A DNA stretch of 34,355 nt from a virus. The stretch's first letter is position 1, and each line of letters starts with the position of its first letter. The notes below the pieces were generated by a model that did no database searches, had not been told where the DNA came from, and saw only the letters and a program-made list of their open reading frames with translations. Below, in pieces: positions 3,750 through 9,348 of this stretch. The stretch lies in the UHGV virus genome UHGV-2160239, one strand, 5' to 3'. Both the position numbers and the translations under genes were made by a program.

Positions 3750-3949
3750 ACAAAAAGACCTGGTTTCGCGCATACATGTGGGCGCTGGTATGCGTCCTCG
3801 TCTCTCTCATTCTGTATGCAGGACTACTCCCCCGAATGATTTCATCAGACAGCTCCTTCCTGGTATTGCTGGGCATTTTCATTGCCATGCTGTACCCGGC
3901 AGGCGTTGTTCGCCTTTTCAGTAAGTACATCAAGGAAATCAAACAATGA
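3746..3949 (+). CDS. Small two-helix membrane protein (possible NfeD/YqiJ-like partner of the SPFH protein)
   Basis: 67 aa with two hydrophobic stretches (WALVCVLVSLILYAGLL and FLVLLGIFIAMLYPAGVV); ATGA overlap with the downstream SPFH gene. Confidence 0.55.
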   Translation: MNKKTWFRAYMWALVCVLVSLILYAGLLPRMISSDSSFLVLLGIFIAMLYPAGVVRLFSKYIKEIKQ

Positions 3950-4776
3950 AGAAACTCAAACTCTTTCAGATTATCCCGCTTTTTGCGGCCATCCTGTTGG
4001 TTGGTTGCGATCGCGTTGAGCCAGGTAATGTGGGCATCAAAGTCAACAAGCTGGGCGACGACAAAGGCGTCGGCGAAGTGGTTGGCGTTGGCCGCTACTG
4101 GACTGGCTGGAATACCGAGGTTTACATCTTCCCGACCTTCAAACAAATGAAGACCTACGATGAGCCGTTCAGTTTCCAGATGAGCGATGGCACAACCATC
4201 GGCTATCACATCGGCGTGGCCTACAAGGTTGATCCATCCAAAGTGACCACAGTGTTTCAGACCTACCGCAAAGGCGTGGATGACATTACCGACACTGACC
4301 TGCGCCAGAAGATCGCCGATGCACTCAACCGACTGGCCAGCAAAATGACCACCGATAAGTTTATCGACGGTGGCAAGTCTGAACTGCTGGATTCAGCACT
4401 TAAAGACATTCAGGCAGAAATGACACCTATCGGCATTCAGGTAATGAGCCTCTCTTATGTCGGTAAACCGGAATACCCACCAACCGTTATCGACAGCATT
4501 AATGCCAAAGTCACGGCAAACCAGAAAACTCTGCAACGCGAACAGGAAGTCAAGCAGCGCGAAGCAGAAGCCAACATGCTACGCGCAGAAGCAGCCGGAC
4601 AGGCTGATGCCATTCGCACAAAAGCCCAGGCTGAAGCCGACGCCATTCGTTTGCGCGGTGAAGCTCTGCGCCAGAACCCCGGCGTTATGGAGCTGGAAGC
4701 TATCAACAAATGGAACGGCACGCTGCCGCAATACATGACCAGTAATACCGCTGTTCCGTTTGTTCCGGTGAAGTAA
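3946..4776 (+). CDS. SPFH / band-7 (stomatin-prohibitin-flotillin-like) lipoprotein
   Basis: 276 aa; signal peptide with lipobox LLVGC; central SPFH-like region followed by an Ala/Glu/Arg-rich coiled coil (QREQEVKQREAEANMLRAEAAGQADAIRTKAQAEADAIRLRGEALRQ) typical of band-7 proteins. Confidence 0.8.
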   Translation: MKKLKLFQIIPLFAAILLVGCDRVEPGNVGIKVNKLGDDKGVGEVVGVGRYWTGWNTEVYIFPTFKQMKTYDEPFSFQMSDGTTIGYHIGVAYKVDPSKVTTVFQTYRKGVDDITDTDLRQKIADALNRLASKMTTDKFIDGGKSELLDSALKDIQAEMTPIGIQVMSLSYVGKPEYPPTVIDSINAKVTANQKTLQREQEVKQREAEANMLRAEAAGQADAIRTKAQAEADAIRLRGEALRQNPGVMELEAINKWNGTLPQYMTSNTAVPFVPVK

Positions 4777-4782
4777 TTAAAC

Positions 4783-4807
4783 CCGGCCAGTGGAAACCGC
4801 TGGCCGG
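4783..4807 (+). terminator. Stem-loop downstream of the SPFH gene (possible terminator)
   Basis: CCGGCCAG ... CTGGCCGG inverted repeat right after the stop codon; T-run is displaced about 14 nt, so termination efficiency is uncertain. Confidence 0.35.
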
Positions 4808-5143
4808 AGCAGCATCAGGATTTTTTAGTATGCCGTTCTCACAAAAAAACCGCTTGCCATGCCGCAATCAGTCAGGTTACATTTCCGCTGCACCTCATAA
4901 AACGGGTGCCGGGTTTCGCAGCCTGCTGACTAGCAAAGCGCACAACCGCGCCAGCGGTTTTTTTGTGCGTACTGTATTGCCACGTCTTTTTCGCACACGA
5001 ATTATGGCGGGGCGTACGGGGCCGACTTCGGTCGGGCCGGGTTCTTTGCTAGCCGGTACTGCGAACCTCGTACGTCTCGCCACCCACAGTTTCGCAGCTC
5101 TGGATGGTGAGTTTTCAAAACTTACTAGCAAAGAGGCCACACC

Positions 5144-5374
5144 ATGGCAAACCGCAAACAGCACCGCGCTATCGCGGAGCGTCGTCACATCCAGACTGAA
5201 ATCAACCGCAGACTTTCCCGCGCATCACGCGTCGCGCAAATCATGCACATCAATATGCTGCATGAGCGCAGCCACGCACTATCAAACATTTATTCCGCCT
5301 CTGTTTTCAGCTATCTGGCGGATGATCTGCGCGAGCTTCAGCAGCTCATCCAGCAGCAAAACCAACTCCATTAA
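5144..5374 (+). CDS. Hypothetical small protein upstream of A
   Basis: 76 aa; AGAGG RBS; basic, helical-looking sequence, possibly a regulator. Confidence 0.5.
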   Translation: MANRKQHRAIAERRHIQTEINRRLSRASRVAQIMHINMLHERSHALSNIYSASVFSYLADDLRELQQLIQQQNQLH

Positions 5375-5446
5375 TTCCTGTTCCGGGCCTTTCCTGCACC
5401 TTGCGGCGGGAGGCCTTCGCACATCTGTACTTTGACGGAGTTTGTG

Positions 5447-7753
5447 ATGAGTACCTCTCACTCATACCCGTGGAACGCGCCGGACTGGGACGTGGCAACA
5501 GCAAACGGCATCACGCCCGACGCTGCCGTCTCTGCCGTGCATGAAACCACCGAAACCACAAGCAACACAGCATTCGCCTACCTGACACCGGACGGCGAAC
5601 GCCGCGTGCTGGATATGAGCGACCTCCGCGCAGTCTGCCGCGAGTATCAGAAGGGGCTTCTGGAGCGCGAACGACAGGAAATCATCCGCCGCCGGAAACA
5701 TGAGGAGTGGCTGCGTCGCCGTCTGGCCACGCTGCCTTCATTCATCCGCACCACCTTCTCCAGAAAACTGGAAAAGATGGACAGAGAAACGCCGGAACGC
5801 GCTTACCACTGGCTTTGCGGAACGTTCGAGAAGCACGTTCTGCGCCGCGTGGATGTGGTAAATGAACAGTACGAACCGCAGACACCGTGGCCCGACATGC
5901 TGCTCCCTTTGCGCGACGCGTTTCACCGCCTGCCGTGGGCGGACAGGAAGAAAATGCGCCACCTCGCCTGGTTGCTGGCCTCCGTCATGACATCGGAATT
6001 CACACGCCGGTTTGATGACCAGTACGCGCTCACGGGCGATCTGGAATCATCCGTGGTGGACGCATACGGCTATATTGCAAGCCGCGCGACTTTTCTGAAC
6101 ATCTTCATCCCCGGTTGGCGGCATTATCAGGGTGAAAGTCTGACACCGGATGATGCACTCCGCTGTGTTTCCCGCCTCCAGTCGCAGAAGTGGTGGCTGG
6201 GAAAAATCCGGCGAATCCACGAATGCTGGCGCGAACATCTGTTGATTGCCACGGGGCACGTGAGCAAATACGCAGGCGCAAAATGCTCTGACGAGTGTCT
6301 CGCATCGTGGCGTGCGCAACGCAAGGCAAACCTTGAATGGATGTCGGCAATGGACCTGGAAAACGAGGATACGGGCGAGCGTATGCCGCTGCTCGACAAG
6401 GTGCTGGGCAGCGTTGCTAACCCGAAAATAGCCCGTCATGAACTCACCGTTCGTGCGGCTGGCTTTCAGGCGACCGCTGACGAGATGGGTTACGTCGCCA
6501 TGTTTTACACACTGACCGCCCCTTCCTCGTATCACTCAATGCGCGTCAAAGACGGAAAACGGAACGACAAATACAACGGGGCCAGTCCGCGTGCCACGCA
6601 GAAATATCTCTGTAAGGTCTGGAGCCGCGTTCGCGCCGCGTGGCGGCGTAAAGGCATCCGCACCTTTGGCATTCGCACCGCTGAGCCTCACCACGACGGA
6701 ACGCCGCACTGGCATCTCGTTCTCTGGTTCCACCCGGACGACACCGAAGAGGCCACACGCATATTCCGGGAGTATGCGCTGGCGGAAGACGGTGGTGAGT
6801 CGGGTGCTGACAAGTACCGCTTTGAAGCGGTCGAAGAGGACAAAACGCGCGGCCGCGCAATTGGCTACATCGTCAAATACATCTCCAAAAACATCGATGG
6901 CTACGGGCTGGATGGCGAAGCCGACCGCGAAACAGGAAAATCCCTGAAAGACGAAGCGCGACGCGTCAGGGCATGGGCTTCGCGCTGGCGTATTCGTCAG
7001 TTCCAGCAGATTGGGGGCGCACCTGTTTCGGTCTGGCGTGAACTGCGCCGACTGGGGGGGTGTGAACTGGTACTGCATCCACAGATTGAAGGCATTCGCG
7101 CCGCAGCAGATGAGGGGGACTGGCAGGCGTACACCATGCTTCAGGGTGGGCCTTTTGTGGAGCGTTGCGAACTGGTGGTTCGTCTCGCCTATGACAGACA
7201 GGAGGATGCCAACGCCTACGGCGACACAGTTTGCAAAATTGCAGGAGTCCGCGACATGACAATGCCGCCGGAAGACATGATTTTCACTCGCCTTAACACT
7301 TACAAAATTGTGCCAAAAGTCAGCAAAAACAATGACAAAGAACAAACAGAAGGCCGCGACGCGGCCCCTTGGAGTTCTGTCAATAACTGTACGCACAGAC
7401 GAAGCAGTGGTGAGCATGAAGGCGAGCATTCCGACAAAACACCACCGGAATCACCGCCGGAAACGGTGAAAAAAGCGCCGGAATCACCATCACAGACAGA
7501 AGAAGATAGCGCCAGTCTTAACCAAATCATCGGGCCGCTGGAGCGACTCGGCTTTACCGTGTCCCGCCACCTCGCAAAATCCGTTCTTGCGGGTGGCGTA
7601 GTGCGCTCAACCGACGGTGTTGTCGCCCGCTGGGACACATCATGTAACAGACTGGTGGTCACGCGCGCGAACGCGTCGCCGTCGCTGGTTGTTTCGAAGG
7701 TTTCCGAATACACCAGACGACTGAAATGGGCGCTGGCACGGAGGTCGCTGTGA
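5447..7753 (+). CDS. A: Replication initiation endonuclease (P2 gpA-like, HUH rolling-circle)
   Basis: About 768 aa from ATG 5447 (GGAG 6 nt upstream); HUH-type metal motif in TPHWHLVLWF and catalytic tyrosine motif GYIVKYISKNIDGY; size and position match P2 gene A. Confidence 0.9.
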   Translation: MSTSHSYPWNAPDWDVATANGITPDAAVSAVHETTETTSNTAFAYLTPDGERRVLDMSDLRAVCREYQKGLLERERQEIIRRRKHEEWLRRRLATLPSFIRTTFSRKLEKMDRETPERAYHWLCGTFEKHVLRRVDVVNEQYEPQTPWPDMLLPLRDAFHRLPWADRKKMRHLAWLLASVMTSEFTRRFDDQYALTGDLESSVVDAYGYIASRATFLNIFIPGWRHYQGESLTPDDALRCVSRLQSQKWWLGKIRRIHECWREHLLIATGHVSKYAGAKCSDECLASWRAQRKANLEWMSAMDLENEDTGERMPLLDKVLGSVANPKIARHELTVRAAGFQATADEMGYVAMFYTLTAPSSYHSMRVKDGKRNDKYNGASPRATQKYLCKVWSRVRAAWRRKGIRTFGIRTAEPHHDGTPHWHLVLWFHPDDTEEATRIFREYALAEDGGESGADKYRFEAVEEDKTRGRAIGYIVKYISKNIDGYGLDGEADRETGKSLKDEARRVRAWASRWRIRQFQQIGGAPVSVWRELRRLGGCELVLHPQIEGIRAAADEGDWQAYTMLQGGPFVERCELVVRLAYDRQEDANAYGDTVCKIAGVRDMTMPPEDMIFTRLNTYKIVPKVSKNNDKEQTEGRDAAPWSSVNNCTHRRSSGEHEGEHSDKTPPESPPETVKKAPESPSQTEEDSASLNQIIGPLERLGFTVSRHLAKSVLAGGVVRSTDGVVARWDTSCNRLVVTRANASPSLVVSKVSEYTRRLKWALARRSL

Positions 7754-8261: not shown

Positions 8262-8354
8262 ACGGGATTCACAAATCCCGTAAATGAGCAAAAAACGCGC
8301 CGCGATATATGAAGCGCGCATAAAACAGGCAAAAACGGGATTTCAGAATCCCGT
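8262..8354. promoter_or_regulatory. parC-like centromere / promoter with paired palindromic repeats
   Basis: Two near-identical 20-bp palindromes, ACGGGATTCACAAATCCCGT (8262-8281) and ACGGGATTTCAGAATCCCGT (8335-8354), each ACGGGATT/AATCCCGT around a 4-bp core, directly upstream of parM. Confidence 0.5.
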
Positions 8355-8388
8355 AAACGATTAATTAATCAACATAAGGAAAAACGAC

Positions 8389-9348
8389 ATGAAAATTTGT
8401 ATCGACGACGGCTCCACCAACATCAAGCTGGCATGGACTGAGAACGGCGAACGCCGCAACGCCATCAGCCCGAACAGCTTCAAGTCGGAATGGTCTGCGC
8501 CGTTCGGTGGCACGCAGCCCGCGAACTACATGCTTGATGGCGTGCGCTATGGTTTTGATCCGGTTAGCGATCGCTTTGTCCAGACGACCGACACGCAATA
8601 CCAGTACAGCGATGTGAATGTCATTGCCATTCATCACGCGCTGGTCAAATCAGGCATCACACCACAGGAGGTGGATGTGGTTGTCACCCTTCCACTGAGC
8701 GAGTATTTCGACACAAACGCACAACCGGACATGGCCAACATCAACCGCAAAAAAGCGAACGTTATGCGCCCGGTGGAATACCAGAACGGCGAAGCATTCA
8801 CTATCCGCAACGTACGGGTTATGCCTGAATCCATTCCGGCTGGCTTTAAGGCACTGGCTGACATGAGTCCGTTTGAATCCCTGCTGATTGTGGATTTAGG
8901 CGGAACCACGCTGGATGTGGCAAAGGTTCAGGGACAACTGGCAGGTATCAGCCAGGTGTTTTGCGATCCACACGTAGGCGTTTCCCTGATAGCCGATGCC
9001 GTACTGTCGGTGATGGCCACTAACGGTATGCGTACCAGTCACCATATCGCCAATACCATCATCGAACATCGCCACGATGAAGTCTGGCTGCGCCAGCACA
9101 TCCACAATGACGCGCATTACGACAGCCTGATGGCGGTAATTCGTGAAAAGGAAGAAACACTGAAACAACGCGTGATCCGCGCGCTGGCGGGTTTTTCGGG
9201 TTACGGGCAGGTGATGGTTGTCGGTGGAGGGGCGGAGATTGTGGCACCCGCTATCCGCGAAGCCTGCGGAGTTAATGCGACTTTCATCGCGGACGGGGTG
9301 CCACAGTTTGCTCTGGTTAATGGGCTGTACGCAATGGACAAGGAGTAA
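8389..9348 (+). CDS. parM: Actin-like plasmid segregation ATPase ParM/StbA
   Basis: 319 aa; N-terminal IDDGSTNIKLAW phosphate-1 motif, YSDVNVIAIHHAL, VMPESIPAGF, LIVDLGGTTLDVA phosphate-2 and VMVVGGGAE adenosine motif, collinear with plasmid R1 ParM as I recall it. Confidence 0.9.
   Translation: MKICIDDGSTNIKLAWTENGERRNAISPNSFKSEWSAPFGGTQPANYMLDGVRYGFDPVSDRFVQTTDTQYQYSDVNVIAIHHALVKSGITPQEVDVVVTLPLSEYFDTNAQPDMANINRKKANVMRPVEYQNGEAFTIRNVRVMPESIPAGFKALADMSPFESLLIVDLGGTTLDVAKVQGQLAGISQVFCDPHVGVSLIADAVLSVMATNGMRTSHHIANTIIEHRHDEVWLRQHIHNDAHYDSLMAVIREKEETLKQRVIRALAGFSGYGQVMVVGGGAEIVAPAIREACGVNATFIADGVPQFALVNGLYAMDKE

Follow-up and report, generated by a model that had tools for sequence, protein, structure and literature searches.

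We describe here a regulatory locus in a 34,355-nucleotide stretch of viral DNA (UHGV virus genome UHGV-2160239; hereafter the window). The window is a P88-like prophage (Xuanwuvirus, Peduoviridae) and contains a noncoding gap of 367 bp (4777-5143) between a gene for an SPFH-domain protein (3946-4776) and an open reading frame (ORF) of 76 amino acids (5144-5374, + strand). The segment 4777-5429 is 94-97% identical to P88 and its relatives, and the locus is matched in 1374 of 5426 complete E. coli genomes. A preliminary description of the gap had drawn attention to a motif present three times, to a UUCG-loop hairpin and to a GC-rich stem followed by seven T residues, and had suggested a regulator-binding array and/or a small RNA or attenuator. 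When the whole window was scanned with Rfam at the curated thresholds, two above-threshold matches were obtained in its entire length, both within the gap and on the + strand. The first is an isrK-type small RNA at 4890-4964 (RF01394, 65.5 bits against a threshold of 50, full length), and the second is a C4 antisense RNA at 5000-5087 (RF01695, 82.8 bits against a threshold of 45, covering model positions 1-87 of 87). The isrK-type RNA lies directly upstream of C4 on the same strand, at a spacing of 35 nt.

The isrK-type RNA is laid out as hairpin 1, a hairpin 2 with a short element (a1) in its loop, a single-stranded second element (b1) and an intrinsic terminator. The terminator (4944-4964, + strand; AACCGC-GCCA-GCGGTT and a T-run) was called as terminator-like, coincides with positions 56-77 of the Rfam isrK model and is conserved in position among the relatives; it is the CCGC-GCGG stem with T7 of the preliminary description, which was correctly recognized there. 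Upstream, a promoter scan identified a promoter-like site, P(isrK), at 4854-4883 on the + strand (-35 TTGCCA at 4854-4859, an 18-nt spacer and -10 TACATT at 4878-4883), the -10 element of which ends 6 nt upstream of the 5' end of isrK. A -35/-10 pair stands at the same position upstream of isrK in all relatives that were read. The P4 equivalent is TTGCCT/TATAGT, just upstream of the isrK-like leader, and we take this stretch to be the P4 P_LE promoter. On its own, isrK folds no more stably than its shuffles (z = -0.68); the support for this RNA comes from the covariance model and from conservation, not from folding energy. A half LexA box (TACTGTAT, 4970-4977) in the spacer between the two RNAs was dropped from consideration since its second half-site is missing.

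The C4 RNA has an outer stem of 17 bp (5005-5021 with 5066-5082), which encloses hairpin 1 (5022-5035, CCGAC-TTCG-GTCGG) and hairpin 2 (5036-5057, with a 12-nt loop). Hairpin 1 is the UUCG hairpin noted earlier, which exists but had been placed too far downstream, at about 5029-5047. The tRNA-like character of the outer stem and the conserved 3' tail ...GCCACC are both visible. By analogy with the annotated ends of P1 c4, the mature C4 RNA is predicted to span about 5006-5084, and the minimum free energy (MFE) fold of this predicted RNA is the Rfam structure (-47.2 kcal/mol, z = -4.35). The whole leader (4890-5150) has an MFE of -108 kcal/mol (z = -4.2), and in this fold the middle of IsrK pairs with the C4 core in cis; this fold is the counterpart of 'structure A', the inactive form reported in Gifsy-1 (PMC4825925). 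The spacer between isrK and C4 also holds a second sigma-70-like site (4977-5005; TTGCCA, 17 nt, AATTAT), its -10 element being the conserved AATTAT just 5' of C4. A transcript from this site would miss the start of C4, and the lambdoid phages have no such site in their version of the spacer.

Two sets of short complementary elements, six in all and all on the + strand, are distributed over the two RNAs and the leader of the 76-residue ORF. The motif ACTAGCAAAG/CTTTGCTAG of the preliminary description is the b1/b'/b2 triple of the antisense system of phages P1, P7 and P4, and TTCGCAG/CTGCGAA is a second triple (a1/a2/a') that had been overlooked. Within the isrK-type RNA, a1 (4915-4921; TTCGCAG) occupies the loop of hairpin 2 and b1 (4930-4938; CTAGCAAAG) is the first motif copy. 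Each is complementary to a counterpart in C4, namely a' (5059-5065; CTGCGAA, as RNA CUGCGAA), located in the single-stranded junction, and b' (5044-5052; CTTTGCTAG, as RNA CUUUGCUAG), located in the loop of hairpin 2 and representing the inverse motif copy. The target sites recur downstream of C4. The a2 site (5091-5097; TTCGCAG) lies 4 nt past the C4 match, at a position matching that of the annotated P1 a2, and b2 (5125-5134; CTAGCAAAGA, i.e. CTAGCAAAG(A)) is the third motif copy and overlaps the Shine-Dalgarno sequence GAGG (5133-5136) of the 76-residue ORF, with 10 nt separating the end of b2 from the ATG at 5144. Pairing of a' with a2 amounts to 7 bp, and pairing of b' (here 5043-5052) with b2 to 10 bp. 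The copies of ACTAGCAAAG at 4929-4938 and 5124-5133 are exactly where they had been reported; the inverse copy is likewise present, but CTTTGCTAGC sits at 5044-5053 and not at 5053-5062. The suggestion that a small RNA or attenuator governs transcription or translation at the entry to the downstream genes is supported, since isrK and C4 are both encoded here and C4 has loops complementary to the leader and Shine-Dalgarno sequence of the 76-residue ORF.

The exact 9-mer CTAGCAAAG occurs three times, counting either strand, in the 367 bp; when the region was shuffled with dinucleotides preserved, 41 of 5000 shuffles contained some 9-mer at least three times. A motif scan of the whole window with one mismatch allowed gave 3 occurrences against 1.45 expected, and at least three were found in 17 of 100 shuffles, which is not significant alone. 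The decisive support for the repeats is comparative rather than statistical.

For this comparison we assembled 17 phages, consisting of the window and 16 further loci (P88, a Citrobacter relative, 11 lambdoid/Stx/Salmonella phages, a Hafnia phage, P4 and P1). The Rfam C4 model matches in all 16 additional loci, with isrK upstream of C4 in 15 of them, P4 included; in P1 the related Rfam family c4-a1b1 is found instead of isrK. In P4 the isrK match falls on the P_LE leader and the C4 match on the CI RNA. Each of the 17 phages has its own a/b combination, drawn from 10 a' types and 16 b' types, and within each phage the three copies stay complementary. A MAFFT alignment kept its register through isrK, a1, b1 and C4 and lost it at a2/b2, and pairing with the latter two was therefore assessed by searching and by cross-phage controls. 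The cognate a':a2 pairing is Watson-Crick at 7/7 positions in all 17 phages, compared with 4 of 250 non-cognate combinations, and the cognate b':b2 pairing is complete (8/8) in 16 of the 17, compared with 11 of 268 non-cognate combinations. These counts, together with the column counts below, replaced a matrix of longest complementary runs with G-U pairs permitted, which was rejected because its background was too high (off-diagonal mean 11/16).

Within the aligned part, the cognate a1:a' pairing is 7/7 in 15 of the 17 phages and 6/7 in the other two, and it covaries. The a1:a' and b1:b' columns together are 92% paired, with 14 of the 16 pairs changed on both sides, and their covariation score of 0.887 compares with 0.226 for shuffles and was reached by none of 500. 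Sliding the partner by 1-3 columns leaves 28-51% of cells paired. Substitutions compatible with G-U pairing are tolerated in b1. The helices inside isrK and C4 are likewise 92% paired, and 20 of their pairs have changed on both sides (0 of 500 shuffles); 15 of these 20 are in the stems of C4, including 10 in the outer stem, which is 100% paired, and four in hairpin 1.

One further element, which we call 'c' (5105-5111, + strand; TGGTGAG), lies between a2 and b2 and can pair with the 3' half of the outer stem of C4 (5076-5082). The resulting long-range helix is conserved, 16 of the 17 phages having seven or more consecutive pairs there, and it covaries in P4 (L017; GCTATCGCC with GGCGATAGC) and in PhiR46_1 and PA2/TL-2011c (loci L013, L011/L012). 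The 'c' helix and the C4 fold are mutually exclusive; as an alternative helix of the unprocessed read-through RNA, the former would place a2 in a hairpin loop.

The behavior of the elements is seen most directly on the P88-like backbone. All six elements differ between the window and P88, where the a sites are TTTCCAC and a' is GTGGAAA (RNA GUGGAAA), and the b sites are CAACTACAG and b' is CTGTAGTTG (RNA CUGUAGUUG); complementarity is nevertheless kept, and the flanks are nearly constant. Cognate duplexes in the window, P88 and the Citrobacter phage are calculated at about -14 kcal/mol for b' and -9 to -10.5 kcal/mol for a' (-10.5 in the window), as against about -3 to -9 kcal/mol for non-cognate duplexes among the same three phages. 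The b':b2 duplex of the window has -14.6 kcal/mol, and -6.3 and -9.2 kcal/mol were obtained with the two non-cognate leaders. A pattern anchored on the conserved leader retrieved 56 IMG/VR loci (L019-L074) with a P88-type module, which with the window, P88 and the Citrobacter phage make 59 modules. These modules carry at least 11 a/b combinations, built from some 5 types of a and 6 types of b, and nearly all are perfectly self-complementary. The a and b elements assort independently across the set, the type of the window being found in 5 of the 59. Low pair counts at L036/L055/L063 and L048 are artefacts, as extraction at fixed offsets misregisters loci with 1-nt indels. Two modules look like partial exchanges: L064, in which b' is of one type and b1/b2 of another, and L019, which has a deviant a1. 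Both would be expected to be derepressed or defective. The overall pattern of types is what type-specific RNA immunity would be expected to look like, and so many a/b types on a single backbone provide a natural panel for the evolution of specificity in RNA immunity.

The 76-residue ORF downstream of the cassette encodes a homolog of the P4 epsilon protein. It matches the Pfam family PF25738 'Derepression' (32.4 bits, cutoff 27) and PHROG 3688, it is 29% identical to P4 epsilon over 66 residues in a BLASTP comparison (E = 3e-9), and the two proteins give reciprocal PHROG cross-matches. No similarity to P1 Icd and no relative in the PDB were found for this protein, and an NCBIfam search returned nothing for it, for the replication protein gpA or for a 201-residue ORF that runs through the gap. 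The epsilon homolog is the regulated product in our interpretation, and it is not likely to be a binder of the repeats. The P2-type C repressor of the phage is encoded at 1057-1386 on the minus strand as a full-length homolog of P2 C (PDB 2XCJ/2L49, E = 3e-30), and a Cox homolog comes after it. P4 epsilon reportedly derepresses P2 by acting on the C repressor (cited as Liu et al. 1997 in PMC8628076).

Replication gene A (5447-7753, + strand; Phage_GPA, PF05840, 311 bits) follows the 76-residue ORF after a gap of 72 nt, and no intrinsic terminator was called on the + strand between 5087 and 5447. Near-identity to the P88-like phages stops at a mosaic junction (5429/5430), 55 nt past the 76-residue ORF. 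The gpA protein here has 768 residues, compared with 940 residues and an extra 121-residue ORF in P88, and window gpA has no close match in the phage collection. Since homology with P88 stops at 5429 and a different A module comes after it, the cassette has been kept while the replication gene was exchanged. Further along this integrated P2-like prophage is a ParM-type plasmid segregation ATPase (8389-9348; StbA_N and ParM_N, 275 and 229 bits); a gene of similar length at the matching place after the replication gene is labeled 'recombinase' in the P88 record. At the opposite edge of the locus, an 8-bp GC-rich hairpin (4783-4807; CCGGCCAG-N9-CTGGCCGG) directly follows the stop codon of the SPFH gene with no adjoining T-run on the + strand, and may be a weak or bidirectional terminator or may stabilize an RNA end of the early operon.

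We conclude that the interval is very probably an IsrK-C4 antisense-RNA immunity cassette of the P1 immI/P4 CI type, carried by a P88-like prophage of the P2 family. By analogy with P1/P7, P4 and Gifsy-1 we infer a scheme of processing, repression, polarity on A, IsrK action and binding of C by the epsilon-like protein. Transcription would start at about 4890 from the promoter at 4854-4883, and most transcripts would end at the terminator at 4944-4964, giving an IsrK-like RNA of 75 nt. Read-through RNA would contain the C4 fold (5000-5087), from which an RNA of about 79 nt would be excised, with RNase P acting at the 5' end by analogy. The b' (hairpin 2 loop) and a' (junction) elements of C4 would then pair with b2 and a2 in the leader of the same operon. 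Because b2 overlaps the Shine-Dalgarno sequence of the epsilon-like gene, this pairing is expected to block its translation. Expression of gene A would be lowered as well, either because coupling is lost (Rho-dependent polarity or termination, as happens in P1 and P4) or through RNA decay. IsrK holds a second copy of both targets in a1/b1 and could for that reason bind C4 itself or the C4 segment within the long RNA, relieving repression either as a competitor or by switching the conformation. The epsilon-like protein, once made, would inactivate the P2-type C repressor, giving a cascade in which C4 represses the epsilon-like gene and its product antagonizes C, with the a/b sequences determining immunity specificity. 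The former 'structured gap' becomes a mapped switch with a promoter, two RNAs, six pairing elements and a regulated gene, and the scheme suggests a route for inducing or silencing a P2-family phage with a P2-type repressor via the epsilon-like anti-repressor.

Several points weigh against this scheme. A C4-like RNA expressed constitutively from Gifsy-1 did not act as a simple repressor (PMC4825925), and because of this result the logic of IsrK and C4 may go beyond decoy versus repressor. Transcript ends, RNase P processing and repression are carried over from other systems. The cassette sits within the early operon, so transcripts from the upstream early promoter may also enter it, and the promoter-like site at 4977-5005, which overlaps the 5' end of C4, is unaccounted for by the scheme, as is the escape of A from repression during lytic growth. 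Finally, the 76-residue protein and P4 epsilon share only 29% identity.

The strongest alternative is that the cassette confers replication immunity of the P4 type. C4 would pair with a1/b1 and a2/b2 to cause premature termination, so keeping A off from a constitutive promoter in the lysogen, and the epsilon-like gene would be incidental. The layout is indeed collinear with the P4 left operon (isrK-like leader, C4 as CI RNA, epsilon, replication gene), and a role as a termination factor with seqA and seqC as its targets has been described for the CI RNA (PMC4825925). The short distance to A and the retention of the cassette across the exchange of the replication module at 5429/5430 also fit this account. 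However, b2 lies on the Shine-Dalgarno sequence of the epsilon-like ORF in every phage, which points to translational control first; the lambdoid phages have the same cassette in front of anti-repressors rather than replication genes; and no intrinsic terminator was called on the + strand between C4 and A. We consider replication immunity a real possibility, if on balance a doubtful one, and it is compatible with the epsilon-directed switch that we prefer.

It is very improbable that the interval instead encodes a protein, with the RNA matches being secondary. The candidate is the 201-residue ORF, for which relatives carry the RefSeq name 'Ash family protein', and the Prokaryotic Genome Annotation Pipeline (PGAP) annotates the locus as an 'ash family protein' pseudogene. 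Most relatives keep the + frame open, and orf45 of Gifsy-1, in the equivalent position, has been reported to be translated (PMC4825925). Yet the match of the window ORF to Phage_ASH (PF10554; 4878-5157, residues 17-109 of the ORF) is weak, at 21.9 bits against a cutoff of 26. Its ATG at 4830 is not preceded by a Shine-Dalgarno sequence, it crosses the terminator and overlaps the 76-residue ORF in another frame, and in the relative L036 it is frameshifted mid-frame with the RNA elements unaffected. The earlier opinion that no credible ORF fills the gap is accordingly sustained. Phage_ASH coincides exactly with isrK, C4 and the leader in P4, Hafnia yong2, ST64B and Stx2a_WGPS2, with matches at 8330-8521 (minus strand) in L017, 842-1123 in L016, 689-976 in L010 and 689-979 in L004. 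Because this holds wherever the matches were mapped, what the family models is probably an RNA locus in translation. PF10554 served as the epsilon marker in a survey of satellites of the P4 type (PMC8628076); the true epsilon family is PF25738 and not PF10554.

That the repeats are DNA operators for C, Cox or the 76-residue protein, with the hairpins incidental, is barely credible: the clustering of two copies in direct and one in inverted orientation inside 205 bp, close to promoter-like sites, might suggest it, but at least 6 unrelated 9-mers substitute for one another on a constant backbone, always at all three places and with complementarity kept, b1 accepts changes that preserve G-U pairing, a high-scoring RNA structure carries one copy in its loop, and neither an exactly complementary inverted copy nor such covariation is needed by a protein operator. 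The regulator-binding array of the preliminary description falls on the same ground, as the motif is swapped for unrelated sequences in near-identical phages while complementarity is retained, a pattern that marks RNA-RNA pairing rather than a conserved protein operator.

A more far-reaching proposal can be put forward tentatively, and we think it rather unlikely. RNA immunity of the P4 style would form a second layer over the P2-type C repressor in P88-type prophages, and the combinatorial a/b 'barcodes' (at least 5 a types by 6 b types) would set cross-induction and cross-repression with co-resident P2-like prophages and P4-like satellites via the epsilon-like anti-repressor. If this is true, the immunity-epsilon module of P4 and the present helper-type module would have a common ancestry, and the 'Ash' family of Pfam, which serves as an epsilon marker in the literature, would describe an RNA locus and not a protein.

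The cassette can be compared with four described systems. The immI locus of P1 and P7 uses the same Rfam RNA family, with P1 c4 scoring 68.8 bits and the window 82.8. The P1 GenBank record gives the order promoters, a1, b1, c4 RNA, a2, b2, icd and ant, with the a and b elements as target sites of the C4 RNA, and the order in the window is the same up to the first ORF. Even the 10-nt distance between b2 and the start codon is shared (b2 at 8453-8460 and the icd ATG at 8471 in P1). As in the heteroimmunity of P1 and P7, specificity would be set by the a and b sequences. P1 differs in that the a1/b1 segment of the window is an isrK-type RNA with its own terminator, the c4-a1b1 model scoring just 20.5 bits there against a threshold of 46.7. 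In the window the first ORF is not Icd, there is no Ant1/2 and the next gene is gpA, so that the cassette appears to work like immI from within a different operon. P1 moreover has the C1 repressor, whereas the window phage is P2-like with a P2-type C.

In P4, isrK and C4 occupy the positions of the P_LE leader and of the CI RNA, the a/b triples have the arrangement seen in the window, and an epsilon-family gene followed by a replication gene lies downstream in both. The isrK-C4 distance is 107 nt in P4, compared with 35 nt here. The first ORF after b2 in P4 is another gene, beginning ATGGCTACA as in the lambdoid phages, with epsilon coming later. P4 replicates with the alpha primase-helicase and the window phage with the gpA endonuclease; P4 is without a protein repressor, whereas the window phage has C and Cox. 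IsrK and C4 have previously been equated with the seqA and CI RNAs of P4, and copies were noted in lambdoid prophages (Barquist et al., PMC3632133).

The isrK-orf45 (STnc1160)-anrP locus of Gifsy-1 and the lambdoid/Stx loci contain the same isrK and C4 tandem at 68-72% DNA identity. In Gifsy-1, IsrK occurs both as a short RNA ended at the terminator and as a read-through transcript, its sequence is complementary to that of the downstream RNA, a processed RNA of about 80 nt (STnc1160) is derived from the read-through transcript downstream of IsrK, and the downstream anti-repressor is controlled via translation (PMC4825925). In the Gifsy-1 study the C4 region is regarded as a small ORF, orf45; the authors report conservation of the nucleotide rather than the amino-acid sequence and liken it to the P4 CI RNA (PMC4825925). 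The regulated gene in Gifsy-1 and the lambdoid phages encodes an anti-repressor of the Rha/Ant type of about 290 residues, in contrast to the 76-residue epsilon-like protein followed by A in the P2-like phage. At five lambdoid loci (L004, L005, L010, L014 and L015) the deposited Rha/Ant ORFs are extended by about 600 nt upstream, across isrK and C4; translation in these phages most likely begins in reality at an ATG located about 10 nt past b2.

In the phage-plasmid N15, an anti-repressor operon is under repression by a processed RNA that belongs to this structural class. The small CA RNA in question controls the antirepressor genes (cited as Ravin et al. 1999 in PMC3632133). N15 differs from the window in being a linear plasmid prophage and in its downstream genes.

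A literature search found no paper joining 'c4 antisense RNA' and 'P2-like', and the locus is not annotated as RNA: the P88 record has a minus-strand hypothetical protein here, and the RefSeq genome that we examined has an 'ash family protein' pseudogene. We have not found this context, a P2-like phage with the cassette upstream of an epsilon-like gene and A, described or annotated elsewhere. The cassette itself is a real switch of an already described kind, the principles of which are established for P1/P7, P4, N15 and Gifsy-1.

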